Counted from the stretch's first letter, positions 16,966 to 54,529 are shown. The stretch: 64,000 bases of DNA from Alphaproteobacteria bacterium (GCA_024281375.1 JAJSAD010000096.1:32867-96866); one strand, 5' to 3'. Translations and numbers: made by a program. Notes: a model not told the origin generated them from the letters alone.

Positions 16966-19900
16966 TCATGGCAAAGAAATGCTCTGGCTGAAAAGATTCA
17001 TGTGGCCGCTTTTTCCCCAAAGATCTCGATTTCCTACAATATAAAAGACGCGTTTGGCTCGGGATACGGCAACATTGAGAATATTGACTTGAGTTGTTGC
17101 CCAATTTCGAGCCCCCCCTTGTGCAACATCGGGGGCACCGAGCAAGAAGAAAACGGCTTCAGCCTCTTTGCCTTGAAACGTATGCACTGTACCGACATGG
17201 GTTTTCGCCCAATCGTAGATAGAAATATTATAGCCCTCAAAGAAATCCTTGTTGCTCATAAGGAGTGATCTCATGCCTTGTGCCACAGCTTTAAAGGGAG
17301 AAATGATAAACAAATCTGGCATATGACCAAGCCCTTGGGCCAGGGTCATTAATCTATTTAGAATCTCCACGCCTTCTTCTGGGCACCATTTATCTTCTGC
17401 GGTTCCCGCCACATGAATCCAGTGAGAGTCCCCCAAAATACCTTTAATAGGGGACGCTTTTTCAGCGGTAGCATAAACCATAAGATTGCTGTAGGCGAGA
17501 GCATTAGAAATTCTAAACATGGGATTTTCACAGCGTCGATGCACCAAAAGCGGGACGCCAATACGAACATCCTCAAAGTCTCTTTTAATAACCGTTCCGT
17601 ATGAATTAGCTTTATCAGAAAGGGTTTGAATGGACGCTTGAGGGGCCGTGAATCTTTTGGGATCCACGCCGTGATGGGTGGCTAAGCTGTCAAGTAAGGG
17701 TTTGGGAAGGGAGGTCACAGGAGGGATTTGTAGGGGATCTCCAACGGAGATAACGCATTTTGCGCGGTAAATAGCGCCAGCAGCAGCTTGCTGCGTACCT
17801 TGTCCTGCTTCATCAATAAGAAGCCAGCCAAAACTTTCTTTTCTCATGCCGCGTAACATGCCTGTAACGGAAGCGAAGGTCGTTGAGATCACAGGAACAA
17901 CGAGAAATAAACTGGCCCATAAATCTGGTAAAAGTCGATCTTGATCTGGGCTTAAGGTTTCACCACCTAAGACTTTCATCATGGAGCCTAAGTTTTTCCC
18001 CAATGGTTTTGCCGCTCCATCAATAAAGGCTTTGTGTACTTTAATGGCAGCAACAAAAACATCGTCGCGTATTCGTTGTTCTTTTTCGGTGAAGTTCGGA
18101 GAAAAGAGTTGTTGTTCTTTGAAAGGGCGCTCCCAAAAATCCTATGTAATGAGGTGGTCTTGCAAGTTTTTATAGGATCTAGATATGATACTTTTGCCTT
18201 GTGCTAAGTCTTTTTTGATCTCAGAAATTTCACCTTCTATGCCGTCATATTGGAACTGTAGCACTTTCATTTTTTTGGTGTTGGTATGGATAATGTCTTT
18301 TAAATTTAAAACTTCTCTTTGTTTCTTGGTGAGAGCAAAGATACATTGGTCATATTCTTCTCCCCAGGGGCTTTTCGTATCGTTGATGAATGCTCTTTTG
18401 AGTTTATAACTTCCAACTTCAAAGAGATTGGGCTTAAGATATTGATACTCTTTCTTTTGCTGTTCTAGGGATTTTAGTTGCATCTCGTCGTGTTCGAGAT
18501 CATTTTTAGTGTTTTTTATCTCTGAGTCTAGGATAGATATTTCACTTTTCATATTTGTGATTAAGGGGAGGGAGTGCTCTAATTCAAGCTCCTTTTCATT
18601 CATCTGGTGAAGGATCTGGCGGAGGTCTTGAATGTTGAAAGTGAGATATTCAGATTGCGATAGAGCAATATTGAAATTACTGCAAGACTCATCCCAATCC
18701 CATTCAAGGTCTTGAGAATTTTCGGGAATATCCTCTTGTTGAATAATAAGGGGGACTCGTTGGAATTTCTCACCTGTCTTTTTGTCTTTGATGGTGGCTA
18801 GCGGAACTTCTTCTCCGCGGACTTCTTTTAAATAAGTGCGAAGACTAGTATCGTCATTCCACCAGAATGTATTGGCAAAAGCGCTCCTATTTTTACTGTT
18901 ACCGAGGGCGACGGCTGAGAGCCCCCATGTTGCGTATTTATCCTCAGCTATGGCATCGCTGATGGTTCGAAAATAGCTTAGCTCATCGGTGAGATCTTCT
19001 GCGATTTGAGAAAGTTGAGGAAGTTCTTTGCTGATATTTTCAACGGCATTATTGTTTGAAGAGGCAACGAGAATTTCATGTCCTTTGAGTTTCTCATCAA
19101 GTTCATAAAAATCCCCAACCTTGGTGAAAGCATCTTCAGGGTATTTAAAGGAGCTTAAAGCTTTGGCACGATCGATGATAACAGAGGCAACAATATCACG
19201 GAGCAATGTTGTTTTTCCTGTTCCAGGAGGGCCGTTAATCGAAAATAGACCGCCCTCTTTTAAGGTTGTCGTTGCAATATTTACAGCCGTTTGTTGAAGG
19301 AGAACAAGGGGGTGACGTCCTGCGCTGGGCCAACGTCCAGCAGGGGTGTTATCAGGACTTAGAGTAGATTCCAATAAGTCATGATCTTTTAATAAATCTT
19401 GTAAGTCTGGTGAGGAAATGTCTCCAATATATTGTTGGAGAGCTTTTCCAGCTTCCTTGTCCTTTAGGGCTGTTTGAATCCGTTGTAAATCACTAAGGTA
19501 AAAACTGTTAAGAATAGGAGCATTTGGCGTTTTAGGCTTCTCATCTTTTTTTGGTTTTCTTTTGTATTGTTTGATAGAAAAGGTAGGCGATAAGCAGTCC
19601 TCTTCGGGAACGTTACAATTTTGAACGAGGAAGTTATAGGCATGATAAATTTTTTCCCAATTGAGGGGGAGCTTTTTTCCATCATCATTTGTCTCAAATA
19701 AGATATCGCGAAGACTCTGCTTGATAAGAGTTGCCGCAGTATTCCAACACCTCAGATGCTCGAGCTTGTTATGCAAAGAGCGACCATACGCCCAAGGAAA
19801 GCTTGACAGTGCAAGATCATTTTGATCATCGATGGGCACGCCCTCTTCATTCACGGTCACAACGGCAGTGGCGGCATAGCCACTATTGGAGATACGTTCT

Positions 19901-20640
19901 TGGGTATCGTCCTTATAAAGTTCAAGGAGTTTAGTGCTGGCATTTTTAACATCAATTGCGCCCAGATACACTTGATAGTATACGGTCATGCCCTCAGGAA
20001 TTTTTTGTGTTTTTCCCCACGGGAGGCGCGTTCCTGTTAAAGAAGCAACTTTCTTGGGGTCATTGCAAATATCCGCTGGTTTTTTATAGGAATTTGGGGA
20101 AAGAACTTCCGTTGTAATCCACGAATCAAGAACGTCAGAAGGTTTATTATCAAGGGAACGGTCTTTTCTAAAGGAAGGTTTTTTCTTGAGTTTATTTTTA
20201 AGAACTTCATCCCAGTCAATAAGACTTTCTGAGAGTGAGGGGAGTTTCTGATTTATTTGTTTTGGGAGGATATTTGCTCGATGGGCAACATTATTCTCAT
20301 TTTGAGGATGCCGAATAAGTTTTTCAATATGAGCGTCACTAAGCCCAGTTACTTCTTTGATACTGTCAACGGATAGGTTTGTTACTGAGATGTTTTCTAG
20401 AATATCATTGGCATAATCTGCGCCTGATACAAGGTAGTCGGCAAAGCAAAGCAGGATTGTATCTTCGCTGGTTGTCGCCCCTTTTTTGTGCTGGCCATCG
20501 TGCACAAATTTCCAGGTGCCATCTGTCTTATAGATTGTTGCGGAGATTTTAGAATTGTAATGATTACCATTGGGGCGCACCTCCCATTTACTGGATATTT
20601 CTTCGATTTCTCTAAGAATGGCTAGCGATGCGTCTTTCAT
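16966..20640 (-). pseudogene. Upf1/DNA2-like superfamily-1 helicase (~1,223 sense codons) interrupted by one in-frame TAG at 18142-18144
   Basis: Track ORFs 18142-20640 and 16966-18003 share a frame, and the 46 codons between them have no stop. Walker A GPPGTGKTT is in the upstream piece. LLIDEAGQ, VGDPLQIPPV, TVHTFQGKEAEAV and VAVSRAKR are in the downstream piece. Confidence 0.8.
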
Positions 20641-20797
20641 TTAAATTCCCTGCAAAATAGATAAGCAATTGAATTATTAAATATTTAAGCCGATTTGTCT
20701 ATGGGGGAAAGTAAGTGTAGGCTTTTATGAGACCATATAAGAAGAAAATGATAAGTACCCCCTAAAGTGGAGGAGACCCGGAAACCGTTGGTAGGGG

Positions 20798-20848
20798 TGG
20801 TGCCGGTTGAGAGACTCGAACTCCCGACCTACTGATTACAAATCAGAG
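20798..20848 (-). pseudogene. orphan 3' half of tRNA-Thr (UGU): anticodon arm, T-arm, acceptor 3' strand and CCA
   Basis: The minus strand reads CTCTGATTTGTAATCAGTAGGTCGGGAGTTCGAGTCTCTCAACCGGCACCA. T-loop TTCGAGT and anticodon loop TT-TGT-AA are present. No matching 5' acceptor strand or D-arm lies upstream. Confidence 0.75.
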
Positions 20849-20898
20849 TGGACTGGAGTGGTTGATGTGGCCTGGGGGATTGGTATGAAAGGGATTGA

Positions 20899-20958
20899 GA
20901 AGTTTTGAGGATGGTGACGATGAGGCGTTATCACCATATTGTCGGCAATTGAGGAGGA
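20899..20958. repeat. direct repeat R (pairs with 16707-16765)
   Basis: GAAGTTTTGAGGATGGTGACGATGAGGCGTTATCACCATATTGTCGGCAATTGAGGAGG, with hairpin ATGGTGA..TCACCAT. It abuts the stop of the last glycan-operon gene. Confidence 0.65.
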
Positions 20959-21798
20959 TTATTTTTTCAATCTGATGGTTATCAAGCGAGAAATTTCTTT
21001 TATAAAGAAGGATGGGCTATAAAAGAGAACATAGAAAAAATAAAAATGACGAAGGGGGTTGTAGATATCTCTTGCCCTTAAATAAGCATAAAATTTCGCA
21101 GATTTCTTCCGTGTTTTTACAAAATGAGGGTAGTATTTTTTTTGTATCCCAATGCCCTTAGCAATGATTTCTGCTTCATGATTGTTTGATAAAGTATCTG
21201 AGTGAAAACGATATCGATACAATGCTTTTTCCAAGGGTTGAATAAGGGTCAAAGTGGCGATTCTTAACCAGTACTCGTAGTCCTCACATAAAAAATCATC
21301 TTCAGAGTAGGGACCTACTTCTTGAGCAACTGGTGCTCGGTATAAAAAACAGGCTCCGACGACATTCCTAAGAATGAGATCTTGTGCAGGGCCGGCCTGA
21401 ATTTCCCCCGTTTTTTGTCCTTGTTCGTCAATAAGTTCCATACTTGTATATGTAAGGCCAATAGAAGGATCATTATCCAAAATCTGGAGCATTTCGTCTA
21501 ATGCATGAGGGAGATAAGCATTGTCACAGGATGTCCAAGTCCAGTACTTACCAGAAGCCTGTGTAAAACCTTTGTTTAAAGCGCCGGGTATTTTAAGGTT
21601 TTTCTCATTTCGTATATAAGTAATACGGGTGTCTTGTGATGCATATTTCTGCGCAATAGAGGCGGTATTATCTGAGGAATAATCGTCTACGATAATGAGT
21701 TCAAAGTCTTTGAACGTTTGTCCTAGAACGGACTCAATGGATTCAGCTAAATAGGGTTCACCATTATAGACAGGAAGAACAATTGAGATTTTAGGCAT
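20959..21798 (-). CDS. family-2 glycosyltransferase
   Basis: ISIVLPVYNGEPYLAESIESVLGQTFKDFELIIVDDYSSDNT shows the GT-A fold. The internal ATG at 21798 avoids overlap with the upstream gene. Confidence 0.85.
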   Translation of the reverse strand: MPKISIVLPVYNGEPYLAESIESVLGQTFKDFELIIVDDYSSDNTASIAQKYASQDTRITYIRNEKNLKIPGALNKGFTQASGKYWTWTSCDNAYLPHALDEMLQILDNDPSIGLTYTSMELIDEQGQKTGEIQAGPAQDLILRNVVGACFLYRAPVAQEVGPYSEDDFLCEDYEYWLRIATLTLIQPLEKALYRYRFHSDTLSNNHEAEIIAKGIGIQKKYYPHFVKTRKKSAKFYAYLRARDIYNPLRHFYFFYVLFYSPSFFIKEISRLITIRLKK

Positions 21799-23287: not shown

Positions 23288-23290
23288 TTT

Positions 23291-25147: not shown

Positions 25148-27435
25148 TATTTAAGATCTCTTTGTGGCATTATTCGATTAGAATACATCGTATCGCCTAT
25201 AATTTGATAATTTATTAAAAATTCTCTATGCAGTTCATCTATATCTTTCTTTATTTCTTTATTATCAATGAGGTTTAGGTGTTTATCTTTTCTAAAATTA
25301 TATATTTCATAAACGTTATTAACATCAACACGTGCAATGTATGGGTCTAATACGAATACCAGATAGCCATCCCAGTTAGGTAAAATCATTCCCCTTTTTT
25401 TTGCTTTTTTAACAGGGGCATGTAAGTTTCTACCAAAAGAAGTATACTCACCACCAAAGTTTAAAATGTTTAATAGCGTTGGCCCGACATCAATTTGAAA
25501 AGCAGGTTGATCTACTTTTTGAGGGGATAGGATACCGGGGGCATGTATTAAAAAGGGGATATGGTAGTGATCGTAAAGCGATAGCTTGCGATCGATGGAG
25601 GTATGGTCAGAAATTAATACAAAAATCGTATTTTCATAGACAGGGTTCTTTTTAACTTTATCAAAAAATTCCCTCAAGGCAAAATCTGCATAACGGGTAC
25701 TATAATAAAACCTTTCTTCGGTTGTGAGTGGATGATCAGGTCTGTGTCCTCTAGGTATTGGGACATGAGGGTGAGAGCTTTCAGTATGGGTGACGATAAA
25801 AAATGGTTTTTCAGCAGAAATCATTTTCTTGTAAAGTTTGTCATAGCCATATTCGTCATGGACATACCAAACACCATGGATTCGTCCATCTGTTTTTTCA
25901 GCACCGGTATCTCCTAGGTTGATATCTGGGTCTAAATCATCGTAACTTAGAAAGTTATCAAACAGAGGTGATATGTTTTCAATTCCCGCAATCATAAAAG
26001 GTAAACTGTAAAAATCGACATTTGTTTTAAATCGATCCTTATTTATAGGAAATAATGATAAAAATAATTTTTGATAGCGTGTAAGGATATTGGCTGTCGA
26101 ATCCCAGGTTGTTGAAAATTCTGACGAGTAGCCACGTTTCTTCAAAATTTTTAAATAACTGGAGCTCAGAGAGTGTGTTATTAAGCCTGTGTTTTTAGCA
26201 CTAACAACTCCCCAAATTGGAAGAGAACTACTAATCGCTGACTCCCCCTCATATGATGCCTCTGAGTTTGCAAAACAATGTTCGCAATATAAACTGTCCT
26301 TTTTGAGTTCCTCAATAAACTTAAGAGGGGTCTCCCTTCCTTTAAATGAGTCGCTTGTAGATTCCTCAAGTGTTTCAAGTACAATAACAACAACATTAGG
26401 CTTTTTAGATGTATCCCCTGCTTCTTTGAAACGAAAAGCAGGAAAGTCTTTAGATATAATTTTTTCATCCGAGGCCAAATTTTGTTGAATATAATTTTCA
26501 ATTTCTGTTTTTGATAAATTTAAATTTGGCCGAACAAAAAATGGAAGAAGGCGCTTCTCTTGACCAAAGCCCTTTATTCTCAGGTATTCAGAAAGAGAAT
26601 TAGATAAAAAATATTGAAGAGGGTTTTTGTTAAAGGAGTCTCTTTCGACTAAATCATTGTATTTTAAAGTGTATTTTCCATTTTCATATAAGTTGTTATT
26701 TTCTTTATAGTTTTGTATCCCAGAAGTTAAATGAAAAGTTATTATTAGAGCCGGTGGTAAAATAAAAATTGCTAAAACATTTTGGAATGTTTCTTTTTTA
26801 TAGGATATGTCTTGAGAGTGGAAAACACGATGATATAAAAAAGGGCTTATTAAGAAAAATATAACTAAGTATGCATAGTCATAAGATATATCTTTCATGT
26901 CTCTCAAATAAAGAAATTCTAAACCAACAGGCTTGTTGATGGCTGGGTACCACCCCCAGAGAAAGGCAATAAATGCAACAAATAATAGCGAAAGGGTTGT
27001 GTAAATTCTTATATCAGAGAGTTTTTTCCCCTTAATATTAAAAAAAGATGAAATAAGAAATGCTGTTTGTATCATTACTAATATTGGGAAGGCAAATCGT
27101 AAGGAGGAAAAATCATTTAATAAAAATGTGAAACTATTAAATGGGACGTTATATATAAGGATGGTGTATATCCGAAAACACATCGAAAACGTTAAATACG
27201 TTAATAAAAAGAAAATCATTCCTTTTAGATGTATATTATTACCCGTAGTCGGCCTATCTTTTCGGTCCCTGATAAAGTTTGCGATCATAATGATTACGTT
27301 GAAAGCTAATATATACACGAGTAGATTCATGCTTTGAGTTTTTATCACAGAGAAAGATAAATATACAGCCGTAAGAATTACAGCTATATAGGCTACTGTT
27401 TTTGAAAATTTATTTTGTAGAAATTTTATAAACAT
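25147..27435 (-). CDS. polytopic membrane protein with C-terminal LtaS/sulfatase-type (alkaline-phosphatase superfamily) transferase domain
   Basis: About 10 hydrophobic segments, then PNVVVIVLETLEEST, HTESSHPHVPIP and FVLISDHTS. The start is uncertain (ATG 27435, ATG 27483 or TTG 27498). Confidence 0.65.
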   Translation of the reverse strand: MFIKFLQNKFSKTVAYIAVILTAVYLSFSVIKTQSMNLLVYILAFNVIIMIANFIRDRKDRPTTGNNIHLKGMIFFLLTYLTFSMCFRIYTILIYNVPFNSFTFLLNDFSSLRFAFPILVMIQTAFLISSFFNIKGKKLSDIRIYTTLSLLFVAFIAFLWGWYPAINKPVGLEFLYLRDMKDISYDYAYLVIFFLISPFLYHRVFHSQDISYKKETFQNVLAIFILPPALIITFHLTSGIQNYKENNNLYENGKYTLKYNDLVERDSFNKNPLQYFLSNSLSEYLRIKGFGQEKRLLPFFVRPNLNLSKTEIENYIQQNLASDEKIISKDFPAFRFKEAGDTSKKPNVVVIVLETLEESTSDSFKGRETPLKFIEELKKDSLYCEHCFANSEASYEGESAISSSLPIWGVVSAKNTGLITHSLSSSYLKILKKRGYSSEFSTTWDSTANILTRYQKLFLSLFPINKDRFKTNVDFYSLPFMIAGIENISPLFDNFLSYDDLDPDINLGDTGAEKTDGRIHGVWYVHDEYGYDKLYKKMISAEKPFFIVTHTESSHPHVPIPRGHRPDHPLTTEERFYYSTRYADFALREFFDKVKKNPVYENTIFVLISDHTSIDRKLSLYDHYHIPFLIHAPGILSPQKVDQPAFQIDVGPTLLNILNFGGEYTSFGRNLHAPVKKAKKRGMILPNWDGYLVFVLDPYIARVDVNNVYEIYNFRKDKHLNLIDNKEIKKDIDELHREFLINYQIIGDTMYSNRIMPQRDLK

Positions 27436-28765
27436 TTGGAAAAATTCTTTTGATTTTAATTTTAATTTTAAGAGGGTCAACATCCTCAAAAAGGGCAAGC
27501 TTTTTGGATAAGTCTTTTTTTGTAAAAGGAGTCAATGTTTCAGCTGTGGCTTGATCTACATTATAGTGAAGAGGTAAAAAACGTCGCCCCAGCAGTTTTA
27601 GTTTTTGGAATAAGGTTCGAGAATCTGTAAGTTTATATGACCCTTTGTTTTATAATAATGGCTTGGCGTCCTTAACAATAAAATCAACAAACTCTTTGGT
27701 GCTGGTGCCAATATTATGGAAATAATCTTTTAGTTTTTTGTGAGCTTGTTGGTCTATCTTAGACTGTGTTTTGCTATCCCATTTTTTATTCTTTAAAAGG
27801 TAGTCAATCATTTCTTTGGCTTCTTCCAAGGTTTGAGGAACCTCTCCAAATGCTAGAGCCCATTTGTGACTGCTATGGCTATTTCCCTTTTGAAGCGAAA
27901 GAACTGGAATACTGGTTAGGTAACCTTGCATAGCAGTGGTGCAATCTTTATGTAATATAATTTTTGCACCTGACATTGCTTGGTTTATATCCCCCTTTTT
28001 TGATATGGTAACATTGGGGTAATGTTTAAATATTTCATCGTATTTTTCTTGAATTTCTACAGGGTGAGGTCTAATAAGAAATTGTTCATTTGGGTAACTT
28101 ATTATGAGTTCTTCTAAAATACCTTTGAAATCAATAAAGTGTGTTTTTTCTTCCTGATAACTATCTTTAAAGAGTTTCAAAGTGGTCGGGCTGATAAGGG
28201 AACAAGCCTTCAATTGTTCCTTTAGGGAATACCCCATAAAGCAGCCAAAGTTAGTATTAACTAAGATATATGACTGCGGGAGTGTTTTAATCTTAAGGGC
28301 CTGATAAAATGATTTATATCGTGCCGTTGAAAGATCAAAAGCAGGCGTTCCCATTATTATATATTTATTTTCAAGCCCTGAATTAGGATTGCGTGAAATA
28401 AGATCTACTTTTTGATTGCTACCCCATAAAAAAATTTTGCGCATACAGTGTAATGATTTTATAGCTGGTTCATGGGTTATTGCATAGACAGGGTTAGTGG
28501 CACCCTCGTCTGAAAGGTCATATAGGTAGATCCCTTTTTGCATTAGATGTTTATAATATGCCGGGTCTGGGTTGACACCTTTTTCTAAAAAGACTCCTCT
28601 ATAATTTTTATATTTTAATTCATCACGGATATAAGGTGGATTTCCTAAAATAACATCAAAACCAGCCTTGCAGAAATGCCTTGCTAAATTAAGTTTATAA
28701 TCAAGCTCACGTTTTGGAGACTCAATGGGAAGGAAGAGGGTAGGTTTTTCTAAACTTAAAGCCAT
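27410..28765 (-). pseudogene. surface-carbohydrate-biosynthesis-type protein; 371-aa ORF followed, after an in-frame TAA (27650-27652), by 79 further open codons
   Basis: The same frame stays open from 27649 to the TAA at 27410-27412 (NKGSYKLTDSRTLFQKLKLLGRRFLPLHYNVDQATAETLTPF...). This fills the only ~150-bp gap in an otherwise abutting operon. The family call is from memory of similar proteins in nonulosonic-acid loci. Confidence 0.45.
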
Positions 28766-34850: not shown

Positions 34851-35924
34851 CTATTGATGGCCTTCTTGTTCAGAAAAATAAGTTTTGTAGTCTTGTTGGG
34901 CCTGGGCAAAATCTTCTTTTTGTCCTATATCTAGCCAATATTCATGGATAGGAAAAGTTTTCACAGAGTTCCCTTTTGACATGAGATCTTCTCAAAGAGT
35001 TGTCATATTATAGAAAGTATCCTGTGGCACAAAAGTCAGGGCTTCAGGGCTAATGACATAAAGTCCCGCGCTGACAAACATCCTATTAATAGGTTTTTCC
35101 TTTAATTGAACAAGGTTTAGGCCATCTAGTTCTACAACACCATAGGGAACTTGATAATCGTACTCACGGACACATAATGTTGCCATCCCGGAATTTTGTA
35201 TATGAAAATCTAATAGGGCGGAATAGTTAATATTTGTGAGTAGGTCCCCATTGATTATTAATAAAGGATTGGCTATCTCATTTTGTAAAAGGGATAAGCA
35301 CCCAGCTGTTCCGAGGGGCTTTTCTTCTTCGAGGTATGAAATGGAAACGTTCCAGCGACTTCCATCTCCAAAAAAATCTTTAATATTTTTTGATAAATAA
35401 TTTACAGAGAAGTAAAAAATTGAAAATCCATCTTGAATAAGGGTTTCAAAAATAGTTTGTAAGATTGGCTTATCACCCACTGTAAGCAAAGGTTTTGGTG
35501 TATTTTCGGTGAGGGGAAAAAGCCGCTCACCTTTTCCGCCAGCCATAATTAACACGGGGCTTTTATGCTTTTTTTTCTGTGTTAACTCGTCCGATGTGTG
35601 GATATCCACAATATGTTCATCTGTATCTAGAACTGGAATAATTGTGACTTGATTGTCACGCATTAATTCTGGAAAAGATTCTTCATTTGCACCACGGGTG
35701 CATGATAGAGGGGACTTGTTCATAGCCTCTGTTACTAATGAATCTAAGGTCTTGTTTTTTAAAAGTGCGCGTCGAACATCGCCATCGGTTAAGGTGCCGA
35801 GAAGCTTATAATGAGGGCCAGATACGATAGCAATTTTTTCAGGGTACTTATTGATAACCTCAATTGCTTCTAATATAGAAGCTGTGGGAGAAATTAACAA
35901 ACGATTCCAGAGTTCTTTTTTCAT
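34851..35924 (-). pseudogene. CBS-domain sugar-phosphate nucleotidyltransferase (PtmE-like) with in-frame TGA at 34992-34994
   Basis: The 310-aa ORF ends ...YNMTTL-TGA. The same frame continues EDLMSKGNSVKTFPIHEYWLDIGQKEDFAQAQQDY...TAG at 34851. The tail carries the conserved NTP-transferase C-terminal HEYWLDIG motif. Confidence 0.8.
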
Positions 35925-37439: not shown

Positions 37440-38303
37440 CTAGTATCTTTTATTTTCTTCTTCGATTGCACGAGAAATATCATTCTTTGTTTCTTGTGAT
37501 GAAATATCCAACTTTATAGAAGAGGATTGAAATTCAAAAATTAATATATCTCTTTGACAATTCTTTTCTGGAATGCCCGCCATATGAAGACAAGTGGCTG
37601 TGTCACAAATAACGGCAGAACCCATTTTCCCGATGAAAGTTTTTTTCTTTTCACTCTCATTAATCAAATTCTCAGCATTGCCATAGTCATCTCTTTCTTT
37701 GTAACCTTTTTTTAACAATGTTCTGGAAAAATTTTTATCAAAAAATGAAAGGGGACCATCTTTTATTGTAATATCGGATAGGGCAACGAAGAGTTTTAAA
37801 GTATCTACTGGATGACGATCATAGTGCAGCTTGTAAGCATATACTTCGCGTGAAGTCTCAGGGTGGGTAATATGCTTGGTGCGATATGCGGAAACATGAG
37901 AAATTTTAAAGTGTGCGCCATAATATTGGTATATTTTTTCTAGAACATCTGGGGTTAATATTTCTAATACACTTGGCACCTCTTTCAATATATTTTTTAT
38001 CATGAAAAAAGACTTTGGATCTCCTTCTTTTCCTTTGTAAAGGTTATCCTTATTTTCAAATATTATTTTTTCATATTTTTCTTTGATTTCTTGTAGTGCC
38101 TTTTTATTTGAAATCTCAAGAAAGTGGTAACCTAGTGGAAAATGTCTTTTGTTATCGTTTGAATATTTTTCATTAGCTTTCCAACGGTCAAGGCCTAATT
38201 TATTGAGGTGAAAACCCACTCTGTTTTTATATAGTATTTCACCCAAAAAAATATCAAATTTGAATTTATTTCTAAAACAAAGATCTTTAAAATTATTTAA
38301 CAT
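37440..38303 (-). CDS. hypothetical protein, possibly PhyH-like Fe(II)/2-oxoglutarate oxygenase
   Basis: Spacing of HYDRH ... KDGPLSFF ... CLHMAG resembles an HxD...H facial triad. This is a weak call. Confidence 0.3.
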   Translation of the reverse strand: MLNNFKDLCFRNKFKFDIFLGEILYKNRVGFHLNKLGLDRWKANEKYSNDNKRHFPLGYHFLEISNKKALQEIKEKYEKIIFENKDNLYKGKEGDPKSFFMIKNILKEVPSVLEILTPDVLEKIYQYYGAHFKISHVSAYRTKHITHPETSREVYAYKLHYDRHPVDTLKLFVALSDITIKDGPLSFFDKNFSRTLLKKGYKERDDYGNAENLINESEKKKTFIGKMGSAVICDTATCLHMAGIPEKNCQRDILIFEFQSSSIKLDISSQETKNDISRAIEEENKRY

Positions 38304-44728: not shown

Positions 44729-45316
44729 TTAGCGTTTAATATGCAGCACTCCAAGGGCAAAAACCCTCTCGGCTGCAAGTGCCTTTATGGCACGGTCGTA
44801 AACTGTTTGCGGGTCGTGAAGATCCGCAATAAAGACCGCATCGTACCCTTTCAAATCACTGTCAACTGACACAAGGTGTAGATCAAAGATATAGGCTTGG
44901 GCCACCAGTTGAATGATCTCAGCAAGGTCTCCCGTGCCCACAATAGCGATTGTTTGATAGCCCCGTTGTTGCGCTTCTGTGAAAAAGACATCCGCTTGGG
45001 CGCGAGCTTCTCGAAAAAGGGAGAGGGAGTGGCTCATGTAATCCTTCACCATACGCGTTTTCTCGATCATGCCCTGGGGCGTTACAAAATAGGCATAGCG
45101 TTTTGGGGAAATATTTTTGACTCGGATCCAGCCTTTTTCAACGGAACGCTTAAGGTAGGTGTTCACTAATCCAAAAGCAATGCCTACTTGTGTGGATAGA
45201 GCGCGCTGAGAAACCTGCGGGTTTTCATCCACATGCTCTAGGAGGCGTACCATGACCTCGTTTTCTACGTGCGCCCGAGAGCGTTCAAAAGCAGACAAAT
45301 TAATATCCAATTTCAT
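44729..45316 (-). CDS. winged-helix (MarR/EPS-associated type) transcriptional regulator with C-terminal Rossmann-like domain
   Basis: ENEVMVRLLEHVDENPQVSQRALSTQVGIAFGLVNTYLKRSVEKGWI (wHTH) and TIAIVGTGDLAEI. Sits directly upstream of the glycan operon. Confidence 0.7.
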   Translation of the reverse strand: MKLDINLSAFERSRAHVENEVMVRLLEHVDENPQVSQRALSTQVGIAFGLVNTYLKRSVEKGWIRVKNISPKRYAYFVTPQGMIEKTRMVKDYMSHSLSLFREARAQADVFFTEAQQRGYQTIAIVGTGDLAEIIQLVAQAYIFDLHLVSVDSDLKGYDAVFIADLHDPQTVYDRAIKALAAERVFALGVLHIKR

Positions 45317-45318
45317 TA

Positions 45319-46000: not shown

Positions 46001-46495
46001 CTAATTTTTCAATAATATATCTAGCGCTGACATAGGAAGAACGAGCTTTGTAGGTGTGGAATGGAGCCGTTTAAAGCCAAAACCCTCATAAAAAGAGGCT
46101 GCTTTTTGGTTTTTCGCCTCTACGATCATTCCATAAATGCCAATGTTTTTTGCCATCTCCGATGTCTTCACAAAGGCATCAAAGATCAATGTGTCCCCGT
46201 ACCCTTTTCCTTGATAGTTTTTATCAACGGCCAGGCGACCCAGTAAAAGGAAGGGAAGATCATCATACCCACTAATTTTAATATCTTCCGGAAGATAGTC
46301 CCGTAAGACGGAATGAGCGCTCAAGGAATAATATCCTATAATAAGGTTGCTATCAGCAACCAACACATAAACCCGTGTCAATGAGCGTTTTTGGTCTTGA
46401 TTTGCATATTTAGATAGGTATGTATTCAAAGGTTCCACACCACAATCAAAGTTTTTACGGTCATGTTTTTTGGGATCAAGGGGTTCAAACTTCAT
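46001..46495 (-). CDS. GNAT-family toxin (TacT/KacT-like) of a type II TA pair
   Basis: FDCGVEPLNTYLSKYANQDQKR, LLLGRLAVDKNYQGKGYG. Its start lies 1 nt after the upstream DUF1778 gene stop. Confidence 0.8.
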   Translation of the reverse strand: MKFEPLDPKKHDRKNFDCGVEPLNTYLSKYANQDQKRSLTRVYVLVADSNLIIGYYSLSAHSVLRDYLPEDIKISGYDDLPFLLLGRLAVDKNYQGKGYGDTLIFDAFVKTSEMAKNIGIYGMIVEAKNQKAASFYEGFGFKRLHSTPTKLVLPMSALDILLKN

Positions 46496-46496
46496 T

Positions 46497-46775
46497 TTAT
46501 TTGGTAAGGTCCTTATGTTTTTGAAATGCCTTCTTCATGCGAAGCGTTGGCGCATTAGGCTTGTCGATCATACTGAAGAACCTATACCAATCATCCTTTG
46601 AAAAAATTGTTTTTTCATGTTGGGCTATGACAGCTGTCGCTTTTTCACGAATGCTTTGCCGAATGAACTTACTTTTATCAATCCCAATATAATTCTGAGC
46701 ACGCGCCATTAGCTCTTCTGTAGGAATATCAATCCGAAATTTTATAGCGTGGTTCTTATTTTCGATCTCTCTCAT
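46497..46775 (-). CDS. DUF1778 (TacA-like RHH) antitoxin
   Basis: 92 aa. IKFRIDIPTEELMARAQNYIGIDKSKFIRQSI, with tail PNAPTLRMKKAF typical of DUF1778. Confidence 0.75.
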   Translation of the reverse strand: MREIENKNHAIKFRIDIPTEELMARAQNYIGIDKSKFIRQSIREKATAVIAQHEKTIFSKDDWYRFFSMIDKPNAPTLRMKKAFQKHKDLTK

Positions 46776-47059
46776 ATCATTAACTCATCTCTCGTTTATA
46801 TTTTTATTGTACCCACAAATGTACCCACTGTCAATAGTTTTTTTGAGGGAAAAAATACATAGAGGAGGAATGAAAACATTTTTTTAGTAAGAGTATTTTC
46901 TTTCCCTATTGACGCTTCCTGTGATGCTTTGCCATTTTTCTTCTTCCTGAAAACAAAAAAATGTAAAATTCCAAAGGTCCAAAAAAGTTTTTCAAAAACT
47001 TGATAGGCGCGTTTACATGTTGCCTTCAGAACAGTGAAATTGCTCCGTCGCAAGCAGCG

Positions 47060-49260
47060 GTGTGACACGAAGTTGTTATGTAGAATGTTTAAGGGATATA
47101 ATCGTGGAAGACTGATTCCATGAATAGTGTACCCCAAGAACCGACTTTTTCGCAAGGGTGTCCCTATCCAGATGTGCAAAGAGAGTAATTTTTTTTGCAA
47201 AGCTCTGGTGACAATGTAGCCGCAGGAAGTCCTGTAGGATTTGATCGTGAGAAAGAATCTGAAACTGCCAGTATCAGGTGGTGAGGAACTAGGGAAGCAG
47301 AATAGGGAGAACATATGTGAACTTTTTAAAATGTCGTGAGCGACACAGAGTGAAAGATACTGTAACACTCTCGCCAAAAGGCATTGCAATTGGGAATGAA
47401 GGTGTCGTTGCTACTTCATCGCGAACCATAAAATTGCCGGCATAAAGAAAGCTCCTAAGTTCTGCGCTAAGTCTACATAATAGAACGTGGAAAACCTGTA
47501 AACCTCCTAGCAATAGGAAAGCAAACCGTAAGGTTTTGCCCATGGGTTTGCAGGCACAGGATGTGATAAAAAGCAAATGTCTTTCTGTAATGGAGAGAAT
47601 ACAGGGCTATCCCTGGCGTGAAAACGAGCCCACTTATCACTGGTCTTTTGTCGTAAGAGACTTTGAAGAATCGTGTAAGGAATAAACGCAAATGACAATA
47701 GCTTTGCCTATTGGTGCCTCTTCCAATCAACTGCTCCTAAATTCCTGGGATGCTATCCCCTGGAAAAAGGCGGACAAAGTGATTAAACGACTTCAGATGC
47801 GTATTGCGAAGGCCACAAGAGAACAGAAGATGGAAAAGGTTAACGCCTTACAACGTCTTCTTACCTCCTCTTTTTACGGTAAATGCTTAGCCGTTAAAAG
47901 AGTTGTTCAAAGTAAAGGAGGTAAAACCCCTGGGGTAGATGGGGTTACTTGGCAAACATCTAAACAAAGGATGCAAGCTGTTGGTGCGCTAAAATGGCGG
48001 GGGTATACTTCTCAACCGTTGAAGCGCATTTATATCCCCAAGAAAGATGGACGAAAACGCCCTCTTTCAATTCCCACTCTCTACGATCGTGCTCAACAAG
48101 CTTTGTGGAAATTAGCCTTAGAGCCTGTCGCTGAGGAGCGGGCAGATCTGAATGCGTATGGGTTTCGTCCTATGCGCTCCACAGCTGATGCTATACAACA
48201 ATGTCATATAGCTTTGTCCCAAAAGACATCAGCAACATGGATTCTGGAAGGGGATATAGAGGCTTGTTTTGATAGGATTGACCATAATTGGCTAATGGAA
48301 AATATACCCATGGATAAAACCATCCTGGGAAAGTTTCTAAAAGCTGGATTTATGGAAAGTCAGCAGGTTTTTCCGACAACAATGGGAACACCTCAAGGTG
48401 GCGTGATCTCTCCCACTCTTGCTCTTATGGCTCTAAGTGGTTTGGAAAGATATATTAGAACTCAATTCAAATCACGGTCATCTAGCAAGGTTAATATTGT
48501 TACCTACTACGATGATTTCATCATTACGGCAGATACAAAAGAGATCCTCCAGCAAAAGATTTTTCCAATGGTTGTCGATTTTCTTAGGGAACGAGGATTA
48601 ACGTTATCCCCGAGTAAAACGAGAATTACCAATATCAAAGAAGGCTTTGATTTCTTAGGCCATACGATTAAACGGTATGACTGTGGGAAGGTGCTTATAA
48701 CACCTTCTAAAGACAATACTGAGACATTGATCAAAAACCTGAGAGAAACAGTGAAATCCATGCGAAGCGTGACGGCGGAAAGGCTCATTTACACTTTAAA
48801 TCCTAAGATACGGGGTTGGTGTAATTATTTCCGTCATATAGCGTCCAGCAGAACGTTTACCAAGGTCGATTATCACGTCTATCAAATGTTGGCCCGATGG
48901 GCCTGTCGAAGACATCCAAACAAATCTAAAGCTTGGTCTTTAAGAAAATACTTTAAAAGCCAGGGAAATAGAAATTGGGTGTTTAGTGATACAGTGACTC
49001 ACAAAGAGAAGATGAAAACGATCTCGCTTTTTGCGGCTCACAAGGTATCTATTCGACGTCGCATTAAAGTTAAAGGAGCGGCGCATCCCTTTGACCATGA
49101 GTTCAAAGACTATTTTGAACTTAGGAAAAAGAGTTTGAACATATTATGGTCGGGCGAGAAAAACTCGCCTTAACAAAGGCTTGAGCCGTATGATGGGAAA
49201 CTATCACGTACGGTTCTTAAGGGACGGGGGAACAGTAATGTTCCCCTGTTACCTGACTAC
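47060..49260 (+). mobile_element. group II intron (ribozyme plus intron-encoded protein); boundaries approximate
   Basis: 5' GTGTGACACG at 47060. Domain V GAGCCGTATGATGGGAAACTATCACGTACGGTTC at 49183-49216. Domain VI helix at 49221-49253 with bulged A at 49251. The RT ORF sits in domain IV. Confidence 0.8.
47692..49173 (+). CDS. group II intron reverse transcriptase/maturase (no endonuclease domain evident)
   Basis: RIYIPKKDGRKRPLSIPTLYDRAQQ (RT1-2), TPQGGVISP, YYDDFII (YxDD) and maturase X motif RGWCNYFRH. 493 aa, intact. Confidence 0.95.
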   Translation: MTIALPIGASSNQLLLNSWDAIPWKKADKVIKRLQMRIAKATREQKMEKVNALQRLLTSSFYGKCLAVKRVVQSKGGKTPGVDGVTWQTSKQRMQAVGALKWRGYTSQPLKRIYIPKKDGRKRPLSIPTLYDRAQQALWKLALEPVAEERADLNAYGFRPMRSTADAIQQCHIALSQKTSATWILEGDIEACFDRIDHNWLMENIPMDKTILGKFLKAGFMESQQVFPTTMGTPQGGVISPTLALMALSGLERYIRTQFKSRSSSKVNIVTYYDDFIITADTKEILQQKIFPMVVDFLRERGLTLSPSKTRITNIKEGFDFLGHTIKRYDCGKVLITPSKDNTETLIKNLRETVKSMRSVTAERLIYTLNPKIRGWCNYFRHIASSRTFTKVDYHVYQMLARWACRRHPNKSKAWSLRKYFKSQGNRNWVFSDTVTHKEKMKTISLFAAHKVSIRRRIKVKGAAHPFDHEFKDYFELRKKSLNILWSGEKNSP

Positions 49261-49446
49261 CCTCACTCTCAATAAAACATTCAGAAAGTATTGCGAAATA
49301 GCCTAAGCGAAGCGGTTTTGCGGCGATTTTGTTCTTTTTCATTTTGAGACTCCGCAGTGTACGTTTGGTACATGAAGGAAGGATCAAAATAAAAAAGGGC
49401 AAAAAGAGCCCAAAAGAGGCATTTCCCAGACTTTACACGGAGTTCA

Positions 49447-50596
49447 ATGGCCCTAGCCCACACCAAGACTTAAAGTATTTTCACGTTCTTCGAGGAGAAC
49501 AGTTGGTTCCCTTGCTTATCGAGCAGGGGTGTGTTTGCTGGATAAAGAAACGGGCGAGATTCACGATTACAGCAAGAAGCAAGTTCAGTCCGTCGATTTG
49601 CTACTTCCCGAAGATGCGCCACAGTGGGCGAAGGATTTACAAAAGAAGATTTCTGAGAACCGGACTGCTGGCGTTCAAGAGGTTTCCGATATTGCTGAGG
49701 CTGCTGAAAAGCGCAAAGACTCCCAAGTGTATCGTGAATATGAGTTCTCTTTGCACCGCGAATTAACCGATGCTCAGAACAAAGAATTGGCCTTAAAATT
49801 CCTTCAAGAACAGTTCTGTTCTAGGGGGATGATGGTCAAAGCAAACTTCCACTTTGATGTTGATAAAGAGGGAAACAGAAAACCCCATTGCCATGCTGTG
49901 ATGCTGACAAGGCGCCTTGAAGAAAATGGCCTTTCCAAGATGAAAGATCGGAGCTGGAACCACAAAGATTTGGCCACAGAATGGCGCAAAGAATTTTGCA
50001 ATTATTCCAATGCTGCCTTTAAAAAACTTGGCCTTGATATCGTGCTGGATCCACGTACCTATGCAGAGCAAGGCATTAACATTGAACCCCAAACAAAGCT
50101 GAGTCGAAATACCCTTGAAATCGAACAACGTCATGGGGCAAATCCTAAAAATATTCTCTCGACACCAGTAACGACTCGCGGTCAGGATTTCCAACAAATT
50201 ACCTTACGCAATCTTTATAAAATCATCGATAACCCCAAGATCGTTTTGGAAGATATCTCGAAGCAACAAATGACCTTTATGTGGGGAGATGTTGTTAAGT
50301 TTTTGGCGCGTCATATCGATGATCAAGCCTTGTTTGAACGTGTGTGTTTAAAGCTTCAAAACTCTGAGGAACTCGTTTGCGTCAAAGCAGGAGGCTCTTT
50401 ATCCCAACGGGTCTTTACAACGAAAACACGTCTTGAGGAAGAAACACGTTTTGTTGAGGGCGTACGTTCTTTAAAAGATAGTCAGACACATGCTGTTGAT
50501 ACTGAGGTGGCTCAGTCTGTGATTGAGTCTACGAACCACAAGCCTTTCAAGAGCGATATAAGGATCCTGAGGCTTCTTTCTCCGATGATCAGGTAA
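49447..50596 (+). pseudogene. traA: Ti-type TraA (MOBQ) relaxase domain, with a frameshift at ~49462 and terminated by an in-frame TAA
   Basis: ATG 49447 gives MALAH, then the frame shifts by 1 nt into ...RLKVFSRSSRRTVGSLAYRAG (catalytic Tyr motif). HFDVDKEGNRKPHCHAVM is the His triad. The TAA at 50594-50596 is in frame with the next ORF. Confidence 0.8.
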
Positions 50597-50611
50597 GATC
50601 AAATCCACCAT

Positions 50612-52909
50612 ATGGCGTCATCAAATCAGTTGAGCTTTATCGAGGGCTATGCGGGGGCTGGTAAGACCACCGTGATGCGCGGCATGAAAGAAATCTGGGA
50701 AGCCAGTGGTTTTAAAGTTTATGGGCTTGCTCCCACAGGGCGCGCAACGGATAACCTTGCGGACTGCGGCATTCGTTCACAAACTGTTGATCGCTTTTTA
50801 CGATCCTATGAACATGGCCAAAACCAGCTCAGCTCTAAGAGCGTTCTGGTGCTCGATGAAGCGGGTATGGTGAGCAGTAAGAATTTCACTGCGCTCATTG
50901 GTGTGACGAAAGAACTAGGTGTTAAGCTGGTAGCTTGTGGAGATCGAGGGCAACTTTCTCCCGTCGAAGCTGGTGCGCCTTTTAGGCTTTCTATTAATGA
51001 AATCGGGAAAGCGGATTTAACCACAGTTTTACGTCAAAAAGTTCCTTGGCAATCACAAGCAACGTCTCTCTTTGGAGAAGGCAAAACAGAGGATGCTTTG
51101 CGCCTTTATGGAGATCATGGCCGCATTAAGTTTGTTGAAGAATCACTGCCTCTGAATGTTGTTGAGCAATACAATCTCTCTCGTCGTATTACGGGAAATA
51201 TCGCCCATGAAATGAATCAAGATATTGAGCGGGCGAAAGACAATAAAGTTCTTGGGGGCGAAGAGCTTACCTTCAAAAAACACCACGATTACGCTTTATT
51301 CATAGACTGGAAAAACACACGGGATGCCTGCACAAAAGAAATCTTTCTGAACATAAGAACCTATCAACCCGTTATGAAGGAAATGGGTGTTGACGGCGTT
51401 GATTTCTGTAACAAGGTTATTAATCACCCTCATAAGATCACCCAAGACTACGACAAATATCGTCTTGCCAAGGCGCTCGGCATCGATTGGCGCATTGACG
51501 TTACCCACACCTGTGATCCGCGTCTTGAAACCAAAAAAGAGCTCATGAGCGATTGGTTTAAATCCACCCAAGATCATCCCGATGCCAAACAAGCCATGAT
51601 GGCCTATAGCAACAAGGATGTGCTTCACCTCAATATGATGGCCCGTCAGCTTAAAAAAGAATCCGGCGAGATCGGAAAAGAGGAATTTACTTATATCATC
51701 GAGCGTAATGCCAATGGTGCGTTAGGGGAAGAACTAGGAAATCGCAAAACCCTTCTTGAAGAACGAACCTTTAGCAAAGGGGATCAAATTGTCTTCACGG
51801 AAAACAACACAGGACTTGGGGTAAGGAATGGGACTTTGGGCCAAATTACGTCCCTTGATAAATCAAAAATCACAGCCACCTTTAAAGAGGAGGGCCTTGA
51901 GAAAGAGGTTTCCTTCGCTCCGAATCTGTACAAACGATTTGATAATGGTTGGGCTCTGACCATTCACAAAAACCAAGGGGCTACCGTTGATCTGTCCTTT
52001 ACTCTAGCCAGCTTTGAGCAATTTAGAAACCTAAGCTATGTGAGTATGACGCGCCATGAAAAGGACGCTAAACTCTACGGATCTGATTTTGATTTCTATC
52101 GTGAGGAGAAAATCTATGATCGTTTGGGGCGCCATCAAGATAAGCTGTCTTCCCTAGATTATTTGAGTCCTGAGGATTCTGAAAAACTTCTCAGATCTGA
52201 ACGGGAGCAGCTCAACAAGACCTTTGAAGCCGTCGGGCGTAAGCTTGACGCAGTGGGTTATGTGGGAGGCAGAGCATGGGGGCAGGTTTGCGATAAATTC
52301 CTGGGAAGAACCCCAGAGAGCAACCTCATTCGTGTTGATTATGAAGCCCTTCATTACCATAAGACAGAAGCCACCAGAGCTGATGAAGTTCTTCGAGGCG
52401 TTAAGTATGACGACTCTATTTTGCCTCGTGATGTTATTCCCAAGGTTACTGCTGAGGCTTCTGATGCGAAAGAAACACAGAAAAAACCTGACCCCAAAGT
52501 CGAAGAGGCTGCCCCTGTTACACCATCTAAAGTAGCCCCTAAAGAAGCTCATCAAGCTCAAGCGAAACAAGTTCCCCCTACACCCCCAGTGGAGACGGTT
52601 GTTCATACGGCGCCTGAGGTGAAGGAAAAGCAAGAAACAGCAGGCCTTCAAAAAGAACAAACCATTGTTATAGAGGCCCCTCGTAAACAACAACGCCCCC
52701 GTAAACAACAAAAACAACAACGTCCCCGCAAACAGAAACTACCCACGCAAGACTTCCAAAAGTTTGTAAGGGATGTCGAAAGTTCCATTCGTATTGAAGA
52801 CCTAGCAAAGGATATTTTGGGAGCTCAGAATCTTAATACGAGCTTGTCTAATTCTTCCCAATTAAGGTTTGGTCGCAATGGAAGTTTGTCTGTTGAGTTG
52901 AAAGGGTAA
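50612..52909 (+). CDS. traA: TraA RecD-like helicase portion (possibly non-functional fragment)
   Basis: EGYAGAGKTTVM Walker A, VLVLDEAGMV Walker B, and WALTIHKNQGATVD / SYVSMTRHEKD C-terminal motifs. Same frame as the ORFs on both sides. Confidence 0.8.
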   Translation: MASSNQLSFIEGYAGAGKTTVMRGMKEIWEASGFKVYGLAPTGRATDNLADCGIRSQTVDRFLRSYEHGQNQLSSKSVLVLDEAGMVSSKNFTALIGVTKELGVKLVACGDRGQLSPVEAGAPFRLSINEIGKADLTTVLRQKVPWQSQATSLFGEGKTEDALRLYGDHGRIKFVEESLPLNVVEQYNLSRRITGNIAHEMNQDIERAKDNKVLGGEELTFKKHHDYALFIDWKNTRDACTKEIFLNIRTYQPVMKEMGVDGVDFCNKVINHPHKITQDYDKYRLAKALGIDWRIDVTHTCDPRLETKKELMSDWFKSTQDHPDAKQAMMAYSNKDVLHLNMMARQLKKESGEIGKEEFTYIIERNANGALGEELGNRKTLLEERTFSKGDQIVFTENNTGLGVRNGTLGQITSLDKSKITATFKEEGLEKEVSFAPNLYKRFDNGWALTIHKNQGATVDLSFTLASFEQFRNLSYVSMTRHEKDAKLYGSDFDFYREEKIYDRLGRHQDKLSSLDYLSPEDSEKLLRSEREQLNKTFEAVGRKLDAVGYVGGRAWGQVCDKFLGRTPESNLIRVDYEALHYHKTEATRADEVLRGVKYDDSILPRDVIPKVTAEASDAKETQKKPDPKVEEAAPVTPSKVAPKEAHQAQAKQVPPTPPVETVVHTAPEVKEKQETAGLQKEQTIVIEAPRKQQRPRKQQKQQRPRKQKLPTQDFQKFVRDVESSIRIEDLAKDILGAQNLNTSLSNSSQLRFGRNGSLSVELKG

Positions 52910-54529
52910 TATGCTGGTTCTTGGAAAAATTGGGAAAGCAATGAAAAAGGCTGGCCATTAAAACTTATTCAAAATGAAAAGGGGTTAGATTTTAATGGGT
53001 CTCTTGCATTTGCCTCAAGCTATTGCCGTGGGAGTATTTCTAACGATATCGATGCGTTCTTAAAGGGCAAAAAATTGAGGGAAATTTCTCCAGCAGAACG
53101 TCAAGCACAAAACGCGGAATATAAAGCTGAACGCCTTAAGCAAGCGGCAGAAACAAAGCGCATTAACGATGCAAAGGTTCACGACGTCCAAACACTCGTT
53201 TCAAAGGCACAGCCTATTGCAGGCACGCCCGCTGAGACTTATTTGTGCAAAGAACGCGGCATTCAAGGAGACCTTCCAGATTCTTTAAGATATATCCCAC
53301 CGCAAACTCTTTTCTCTTATAAGGGAAATAAGATCCCCATAAAGAGTGGTGCATTACTATCCGTTGCAACAGATCATGATGGTGAGGTTAAAGCGATTCA
53401 ACTAACACAGCTCACAGAAAGTGGGCAAAAGGCTGTTGGCTTTGATGGATCAACATTACCAAAGAAAACCTATGGCGTTCAAAAAGGTTCTTTTGTGGAG
53501 CTTCAAAAAGGAAGCAATAAAGATCCCATCATTCTAGCGGAAGGTATTGAAACTGCCCTCTCTGTGAAAGAAACGGGTATCAAAGGAACAGTTCTGTGTT
53601 CCCTTGGCACGTCTAATATTGGTAACCTTGATGTGAAAAACCGAGAGGTTATTATTGCAGCCGATTGGGATGGCAGCTTTGAGGTACAGTCCTGGAAAAC
53701 AACGGAAAAAGCCAAAGGGAATCTTGAAGCTAAAGGAAATAGTGTTTCCATTGTTCTGCCCGTTGAAAATACAAAATTAACGGATCGGAAAGTAGATTTT
53801 AACGATCTTTTAAAACAAGAAGGTGTAGACTCAGTCATAGATCGTGTATCAGAGCAAGCCCCTGGGGTTTTTGGCCACGTGTCATCCTCCAGGGACTTTC
53901 AACTTGAGGATTCCCATGAAAGACAAGAAGATCATAACGTTTCCGAAAAGCAACCTGCTGACCCTGGGCTTAACCCATCAACAGATCACGCCGAAAACAC
54001 GGGGCAGCTTTTGGCGCAAATGGATAAGAAAGCGGACGAAAAAACTTTTCAAGACGCGGCCTTAAAAGATAATATTCTTGCGTATTTCGAGCAAGAACTT
54101 GCAAAGCCAGAAAATAGAAACTGGAACAAAGACCACGTCCTAGAAGACGTTCAACGCGATCCTCTTGATGCCCTCAATTGGTGGAAAAAAGAATGTGGCG
54201 GTGGTGCTTTTGATCCTAGTAAACCCCTTAGTGAGCAGCCTTCAAGTTTACAGGTTGATATCACTCTGACTGACACGTCGAAAACCTCTGAAGGTGATTT
54301 CGCGAAAGACTTCGCTAAAGAGCTTAAGAACCTGGATGACAGTATCGAACGCGTCGCTAATAAACAGGACTACCAAGGCGCCCTCGCCAACTACACCCAA
54401 CAACGCGAAGACCTCCTAAAAGGCCTTGATGACACAAAAATTCAAGACCTCAAATCCCAGGAGCCAGACCTTGCCCACCGCGTCGAAGAACATCAAAACA
54501 GCAAGAAAATAACCGAGGATCGGGCTTAG
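52910..54529 (+). CDS. Toprim/primase-like module, in frame with the TraA helicase ORF across the TAA at 52907-52909
   Basis: 55 open codons link the stop to the track ORF (YAGSWKNWESNEKGWPLKLIQNEKGLDFNGSLAFA...). Toprim signatures ILAEGIETALSV and IIAADWDG are present. Confidence 0.7.
   Translation, partial: YAGSWKNWESNEKGWPLKLIQNEKGLDFNGSLAFASSYCRGSISNDIDAFLKGKKLREISPAERQAQNAEYKAERLKQAAETKRINDAKVHDVQTLVSKAQPIAGTPAETYLCKERGIQGDLPDSLRYIPPQTLFSYKGNKIPIKSGALLSVATDHDGEVKAIQLTQLTESGQKAVGFDGSTLPKKTYGVQKGSFVELQKGSNKDPIILAEGIETALSVKETGIKGTVLCSLGTSNIGNLDVKNREVIIAADWDGSFEVQSWKTTEKAKGNLEAKGNSVSIVLPVENTKLTDRKVDFNDLLKQEGVDSVIDRVSEQAPGVFGHVSSSRDFQLEDSHERQEDHNVSEKQPADPGLNPSTDHAENTGQLLAQMDKKADEKTFQDAALKDNILAYFEQELAKPENRNWNKDHVLEDVQRDPLDALNWWKKECGGGAFDPSKPLSEQPSSLQVDITLTDTSKTSEGDFAKDFAKELKNLDDSIERVANKQDYQGALANYTQQREDLLKGLDDTKIQDLKSQEPDLAHRVEEHQNSKKITEDRA

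Follow-up and report, generated by a model that had tools for sequence, protein, structure and literature searches.

Pseudogenes are denser on mobile (plasmid) DNA than on core DNA, and conjugative functions are often among those lost (PMC11229322). Gene decay of this sort is already known as a phenomenon, and we describe an instance of it in a 64,000-nucleotide stretch of an Alphaproteobacteria bacterium assembly (GCA_024281375.1, JAJSAD010000096.1:32867–96866; hereafter the window, with positions counted from its first letter). Between positions 16966 and 54529 of the window, several adjacent open reading frames (ORFs) share a frame and are separated by a single stop codon. As in other decaying integrative and conjugative elements (ICEs) and plasmids, the conjugative element found here has a multiply hit relaxase gene (traA), a truncated coupling protein and a fragmentary type IV secretion system (T4SS), and the related loci L001–L004 are intact. 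There is no essential difference from such cases, although this element is chromosomal and its neighbours are a glycan cluster and a defence-like helicase gene, where the interrupted genes have a single nonsense lesion each.

Three of the interrupted genes resemble described systems. In Ti-type TraA, the Pfam domain order MobA_MobL, AAA_30, DUF7146 and Toprim_3 can be read across the lesions of the window copy. The intact 1699-amino-acid (aa) orthologue, P0124, matches TIGR02768 (TraA_Ti) at E = 2e-168 and 562 bits, against an equivalog cut-off of 590.45; it differs from the model in being about twice its length, owing to a primase extension (DUF7146-Toprim), and the window copy is disrupted. 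The core of the helicase matches MkoC, the PADLOC profile of Mokosh type II, with scores of 1.7e-22 and 5.1e-36 for the two window halves and E = 4.5e-70 for the intact homologue P0001. However, only profile positions ~244–950 of 1136 are covered, the N-terminal ~440 residues carry no annotated domain, and domain annotation detects no nuclease domain; as a core-only match, the helicase is not filed as a member of Mokosh MkoC. PtmE of the Campylobacter legionaminic-acid pathway has the same CBS plus NTP_transferase architecture as the third gene, which clusters with genes for NeuB, a NeuC-type epimerase, a DegT aminotransferase, a 4,6-dehydratase, a CMP-sugar synthetase and SDR proteins, but whose window copy lacks the last 46 residues. 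This gene is a putative orthologue of Cj1329, and its substrate and activity are predicted.

The window opens with a core chromosomal stretch, gpmI to uvrA (1–16.6 kb). The accessory DNA that follows contains the Mokosh-like helicase gene, a glycan cluster of the legionaminic/pseudaminic-acid type (23 kb), genes of toxin-antitoxin systems, a group II intron and the leftovers of the integrated conjugative element (traA, coupling protein and F-type T4SS fragments). The region is AT-rich (32–45% GC), and the source labels of related contigs place the organism in an alphaproteobacterium-like lineage. The original prediction, made by reading frames directly, named six single in-frame stops, and the sequence confirms all six at their positions, with the flanking ORFs in one frame. 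Four of them are substitution-type premature stops: a TAG in the helicase gene, a TAA in a surface carbohydrate biosynthesis gene, a TGA in the PtmE-like gene and the TAA at 52907–52909 in traA. In homologue alignments each aligns gap-free with a sense codon and has no indel nearby, and each interrupted gene has from dozens to more than 1000 single, uninterrupted homologues. The claim of mutational lesions in accessory genes stands for these four genes; the remaining two stops, one in traA (50594–50596) and one at 37440–37442, are not premature stops of this type. The tally of lesions comprises four nonsense changes, at least five frameshifting indels (four in traA and one in relE), at least three large truncations or deletions, and one adjacent intron. 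Very probably, a dying conjugative element and the accessory genes that neighbour it are undergoing gene decay of an ordinary, recent kind.

That a single stop splits the helicase gene, as had been proposed, is borne out by motifs on both sides of the TAG: Walker A (GPPGTGKT) precedes it and motif II (LLIDEAGQ) follows it, and Pfam AAA_11 is divided between profile positions 9–171 upstream and 195–254 downstream, with AAA_12 thereafter. Searching 5.8 billion proteins returned 1525 homologues at E ≤ 1e-10. Among those listed, the full-length matches are mostly single proteins of 1050–1250 aa, and the closest (61–69% identity) span 99–100% of the bridged query. The only place where the 832-aa fragment is seen is one NCBI contig, the source. 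The stop column is aligned without gaps and holds E, K, Q, S, P, D or C, with E, K or Q in near relatives (LIT-E/K-DFW). The closest orthologue with DNA, at 9080–12775 of contig L005 (Logan run ERR3534970; 77% nucleotide and 79% aa identity), reads GAG at this site, and the lesion is a GAG>TAG change, a G>T transversion. The L005 gene has a premature stop of its own: its codon 279 is an in-frame TGA, against TCA in the window. Gaps between the two copies amount to 3 and 24 nucleotides (nt) only, and neither copy has any other stop or frameshift. Of traA, the same L005 contig retains only fragments with DUF7146 and AAA_30, and of the integrase a 155-aa piece. The ratio of nonsynonymous to synonymous divergence (dN/dS) between the helicase copies, with dS near saturation, is 0.16 for codons 1–278, 0.155 for codons 280–832 and 0.05 for codons 834–1224. 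Judged from its sequence, the truncated helicase would be inactive through loss of motifs II–VI; a defence role for this Mokosh-like protein is conjecture.

The split of the PtmE-like gene is likewise upheld. Its NTP_transferase profile is matched at positions 3–188 before the stop and 209–243 after it, all 119 of the 119 listed homologues are 347–364 aa long, and alignments to solved nucleotidyltransferases cross the stop without a break and reach the conserved W-x-D-I-G motif, present as FPIHEYWLDIG on the C-terminal side of the TGA. The stop column contains F in 64 homologues, L in 39 and I in 15, with L in the three closest. The lesion is probably TTA>TGA, a T>G transversion reachable from L in a single step, a class read from the protein column. 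Loss of the sugar-binding W-D-I-G motif would leave the truncated product inactive.

The surface carbohydrate gene, rated only a probable case before, can be placed with these two. Its 371-aa ORF and the 79 codons past the TAA make up the 451 codons of the ancestral gene; these 79 codons are 42–62% identical to homologue C-termini, the upstream part being 52–60% identical, and the good ones among 85 homologues are 446–460 aa long and cover 98–100% of the bridged query. K is the commonest residue in the stop column (27 of 61 homologues), and the lesion is probably AAA>TAA, an A>T change deduced from that column. The TIGR04396 assignment was scored on the homologue P0259, which is 58% identical to the bridged window protein, rather than on the window protein (219.6 bits against a cut-off of 125; profile 2–424 of 427). 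A contig-level genome scan with the surface carbohydrate protein gave a best match of only 56% identity. Together, the lesions in this gene and in the PtmE-like gene suggest that the nonulosonic-acid glycan pathway of the organism may be impaired.

The traA lesions can be read against DNA, taken from four intact related loci. At ≥90% identity, a 355-aa piece of traA falls into a cluster with two intact proteins, of 1699 aa (15 contigs) and 1731 aa (13 contigs), and the L002 locus is 81% identical to the window traA in nucleotide sequence. In this alignment all indels are multiples of three except four insertions in the window: +1 at 49465, +2 at ~50540, +1 at ~50601 and +2 at ~54500. The first, at ~49465, throws the gene out of frame after codon 6, as the predicted frameshift at the 5' end of traA requires. 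The last displaces the final ~10 codons, and the terminal G-L-G-(L/I)-stop is found in another frame. The 60 nt between the middle two are out of frame, which exposes the TAA at 50594–50596; this arises from GTA-AGA (Val-Arg) read one base off, where the orthologue has GTA-CGC (Val-Arg), and the ancestral peptide (A/G)FQER(S/Y)KDPEAS(L/F)S(E/D)DQVR is readable there in the other frame. At 52907–52909 the orthologue has CAA (Gln), and the window TAA is a clean CAA>TAA, C>T nonsense change. Of the two traA stops in the original prediction, the downstream one is a point change as claimed, whereas the upstream one results from the +2/+1 pair of insertions; nor does the count of only two frameshifts hold, since traA alone has four and relE a further one. 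Relative to L002, dN/dS is 0.06 in the relaxase, 0.10 in the helicase and 0.18 in the primase part. In another metagenome-assembled genome (MAG), traA is split by a frameshift into 974 and 770 aa. Lacking its start, the link between relaxase and helicase, and the primase, the window TraA product is predicted to be inactive.

Table 1. Coordinates of the interrupted genes, the element remnants and other features of the window
Feature	Position	Strand	Remarks
SF1 (AAA_11/AAA_12) helicase pseudogene, Mokosh MkoC-like core	16966..20640	-	1224 codons bridged; TAG 18142–18144 = codon 833
Surface carbohydrate biosynthesis gene (TIGR04396)	27410..28765	-	ancestral 451 codons; TAA 27650–27652 = codon 372
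PtmE-like CBS + nucleotidyltransferase gene	34851..35924	-	ancestral 357 codons; TGA 34992–34994 = codon 311
Complete 287-aa gene of unknown function	37440..38303	-	TAG 37440–37442 = natural stop
Group II intron	47141..49257	+	intact 493-aa reverse transcriptase/maturase ORF 47692–49173; Rfam
traA (Ti-type relaxase-helicase-primase) pseudogene	49447..54529	+	four frameshifting indels and one nonsense change
Type IV coupling protein (TrwB/TraD) remnant	59189..60391	-	residues 164–568 of 568-aa orthologue, 92% identity
TraG fragment, 301 aa	60388..61293	-	TraG_N profile 304–456 of 462, last third only
trbC	61865–62776		between traE and TraG fragments
relE-like toxin gene	62804..63080	+	frameshift near 62950; preceded by relB-like antitoxin gene 62590–62814
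TraE C-terminal fragment, 88 aa	63522..63788	-	profile 110–170 of 182

A recent relaxation of selection on parts of the accessory DNA has very probably allowed spontaneous mutations of every kind to pile up, and what is found in the window is four stop-making substitutions, at least five small indels and deletions that took away most transfer genes. Neither an unusual mutational bias nor recoding nor a mechanism for splitting genes is required. The frame stays open past a single stop because a substitution cannot shift it, and because there has been too little time for a second hit in the three singly hit genes. The dN/dS values of 0.05–0.18 on either side of the lesions indicate purifying selection over nearly all of the divergence, and therefore that the lesions are recent. 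As a rough estimate, one nonsense change per 4–5 kb corresponds to ~0.5% neutral divergence, at which a single lesion per gene, with an open frame past it, is expected. Parallel decay is seen elsewhere, in the helicase stop and TraA fragments of L005 and in the frameshifted traA of the other MAG. It is true of the window, as predicted, that only accessory genes are hit. Since accessory genes make up ~75% of its coding DNA, the accessory-only pattern of four out of four nonsense changes (P~0.3, by arithmetic from the coding share) is weak evidence alone, and for nine out of nine small lesions P is ~0.08; the pattern is in keeping with a relaxation of selection on mobile DNA.

Several observations weigh against ordinary recent decay. 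First, the glycan cluster shows two nonsense lesions and zero detected frameshifts in 22 genes. Second, the helicase family has been hit by nonsense in two lineages. This richness in nonsense is mild in both cases, and the numbers are too small to mean anything. Third, the lesions are called from assembled sequence only. Fourth, no sister genome that could date the lesions or show their fixation was found in the collections searched; the core proteins of the window have no relatives at ≥90% identity, being singletons in protein clusters at that level.

It is unlikely that the stops are assembly or base-calling artefacts, miscalled bases of a draft or metagenome-assembled genome in genes that are intact. 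The source is a draft genome, a 99,095-bp contig whose proteins lack source annotation, and internal stops are a documented sign of poor assemblies (PMC11017572), which counts in favour of this explanation. However, a stop results from only 4.9% of the single-base changes open to the affected genes and glycan cluster, and at this share four stops imply ~80 miscalled bases across ~55 kb of coding sequence, or ~0.15%. An error rate of this size should have produced indels as well, yet long ORFs such as those of uvrA (948 aa), a sulfatase (783 aa) and an ABC transporter (583 aa) are unbroken. Moreover, kilobase-scale deletions and an intron insertion in the element are not base-calling errors, and the independent assembly of another organism, L005, has a different stop in the same helicase.

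The two independent helicase stops, at codon 833 in the window and codon 279 in L005, in a 3.7-kb gene otherwise under strong purifying selection (dN/dS 0.05–0.16), allow a further reading that seems improbable for now: in place of neutral decay, recurrent selection may silence a costly helicase of defence or ICE maintenance, or the stop codons may serve as a reversible off switch.

Mutation pressure from GC to AT, which would favour nonsense over indel lesions and was the explanation first offered, is very unlikely. The region is indeed AT-rich, CAA>TAA is a classic transition of this kind, and GAG>TAG is also AT-enriching. But the surplus of nonsense over indels on which the proposal was built does not exist, as four nonsense changes stand against at least five frameshifting indels and the large deletions. 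The changes also fall into four different classes. Among stop-creating changes open to the affected genes and the glycan cluster, 41% are T>A, 24% C>A, 17% C>T, 12.5% T>G and 6% C>G; the four lesions represent C>A (as G>T, observed), C>T (observed), T>G (deduced) and T>A (as A>T, probable and deduced). These classes roughly match unbiased opportunity, with no GC-to-AT signature: the change in traA is the sole transition of the CAA/CAG/TGG type, and the TTA>TGA deduced for the PtmE-like gene is GC-enriching. A deaminase-type C>T signature, considered as L001 encodes a deaminase-domain protein, is rejected on the same spread over four classes.

That the interrupted genes still work, through read-through, recoding with selenocysteine or pyrrolysine, or assembly of split proteins from two pieces, is scarcely credible. 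In its favour, the downstream parts are open and highly conserved (dN/dS 0.05 for helicase codons 834–1224), and the same helicase has a single stop in each of two lineages. Against it, the stops are of three kinds, all of them normal terminators, their columns carry ordinary residues (E/K/Q, K, L/F/I and Q), neither Cys nor Lys-specific nor stops, the breaks lie inside folded domains, and no listed homologue is split at the same point, the helicase stops being at different codons. The read-through and gene-splitting alternatives raised in the original prediction fall with it, as homologues read ordinary sense at these positions, with the exception of L005 and its own separate interruption, and the full-length ones listed are single ORFs. 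Codon reassignment is rejected as well: 34 ORFs in the window end on TAA, 13 on TAG and 8 on TGA, with intact genes ending on each (tig, ETF-QO and a DegT-family gene, respectively). Selenocysteine and pyrrolysine are rejected on stop columns of L/F/I and E/K/Q, and the window has one tRNA only, tRNA-Leu(UAG), of the ordinary kind.

Ordinary decay matters mainly for annotation. Each of four gene pairs should be annotated as one pseudogene, the entry for traA should note its several disruptions, the conjugative element should be scored as non-transmissible, and the 287-aa gene and the adjacent methyltransferase should remain separate genes. Mutational spectra or nonsense surpluses should be drawn with caution from frame-reading alone, because, among the apparent in-frame stops, one proved to come from two frameshifts that compensate each other and another to be a gene boundary that keeps the frame by chance.

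The latter is the TAG at 37440–37442, listed earlier as a possible lesion, which is the natural end of the stand-alone 287-aa gene. An exhaustive HMMER search finds 740 relatives of its product, stand-alone proteins of ~280–315 aa, the best of which aligns over residues 1–293 of 294 to window residues 1–287. Fusion with the methyltransferase gene (36651–37334) is ruled out by these stand-alone homologues and by a syntenic cluster, L007, in which the frame of the 287-aa homologue is not that of the methyltransferase. By chance alone, about one third of neighbours on the same strand are in frame with each other. Three further same-frame, one-stop junctions of this kind occur in the window, at 6152–6667/5459–6145, 23291–25147/21791–23287 and 35937–36611/34992–35924. 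The first is rejected as a split gene, because a small P-loop protein is complete there and the next gene, a separate one, encodes a protein with a signal peptide; so is the second, whose frames differ in L006 and whose methyltransferase is present in L007 and L010 with no kinase.

The L007 cluster (1–17101) is on a contig binned as Candidatus Paceibacterota and is a nonulosonic-acid cluster with a gene set much like that of the window, largely in the same order. Its proteins are 38–68% identical to their window counterparts, and the 287-aa protein, its methyltransferase neighbour, the surface carbohydrate protein, a 498-aa methyltransferase and a GT2 protein are common to both. This likeness suggests either cross-phylum horizontal spread of the cluster or a mis-binned contig.

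Elsewhere in the conjugative element, the coupling protein has lost its N-terminal 163 residues in a deletion that fused the remnant to the TraG fragment; dN/dS in the remnant is 0.05. Most of the F-type T4SS genes between traE, trbC and traG are gone. Between trbC and the traE fragment lie the relBE cassette and a second, RHH antitoxin-like ORF (63113–63346). The intact relative (L001/L002) encodes an integrase, traD, traA, a 1166-aa helicase paralogue and the 568-aa coupling protein. There, the MkoC-like paralogue (37% identical to the window helicase, which sits elsewhere) adjoins traA and is followed by a 439-aa deaminase-domain protein (15242–21389); the counterpart of this segment in the window is a class-3 lipase gene (54559–55962) with small ORFs.

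The group II intron is delimited by Rfam matches only, to group-II-D1D4-7 at 47141–47289 and to domain V/VI at 49181–49257, and its true 5' end lies further left. Its 3' end is ~190 nt upstream of the traA start, and the small relaxosome accessory genes found at the same site in the intact relative are not detectable in the window; the intron appears to have inserted next to traA. Minus-strand ORFs at 46796–47730 match no Pfam family and look non-coding, lying in or beside the 5' RNA domains of the intron. Between the glycan cluster and the intron, a TacA-like antitoxin (92 aa) and a GNAT acetyltransferase (164 aa) are encoded on the minus strand at 46001–46775, a pair that looks like an intact TacAT-type toxin-antitoxin module.

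The window also contains direct repeats. One, of 127 nt and 87% identity, occurs at 16770–16896 and 45171–45297, 28.4 kb apart, and flanks the helicase gene and the entire glycan cluster. It corresponds to the 5' end of a MarR-family EPS-associated regulator gene (44729–45316), of which a truncated copy persists as a 78-codon ORF beside uvrA (16661–16897). This arrangement suggests insertion or replacement of the island via recombination at the regulator gene. A shorter direct repeat (52 nt, 90% identical) lies at 2532–2583 and 5318–5369, on either side of a DEAD-box helicase gene. The 3' part of that gene contains, at 3188–3635, 63–168-nt tandem-like repeats (families D1/D3), which probably encode a repetitive C-terminal tail.

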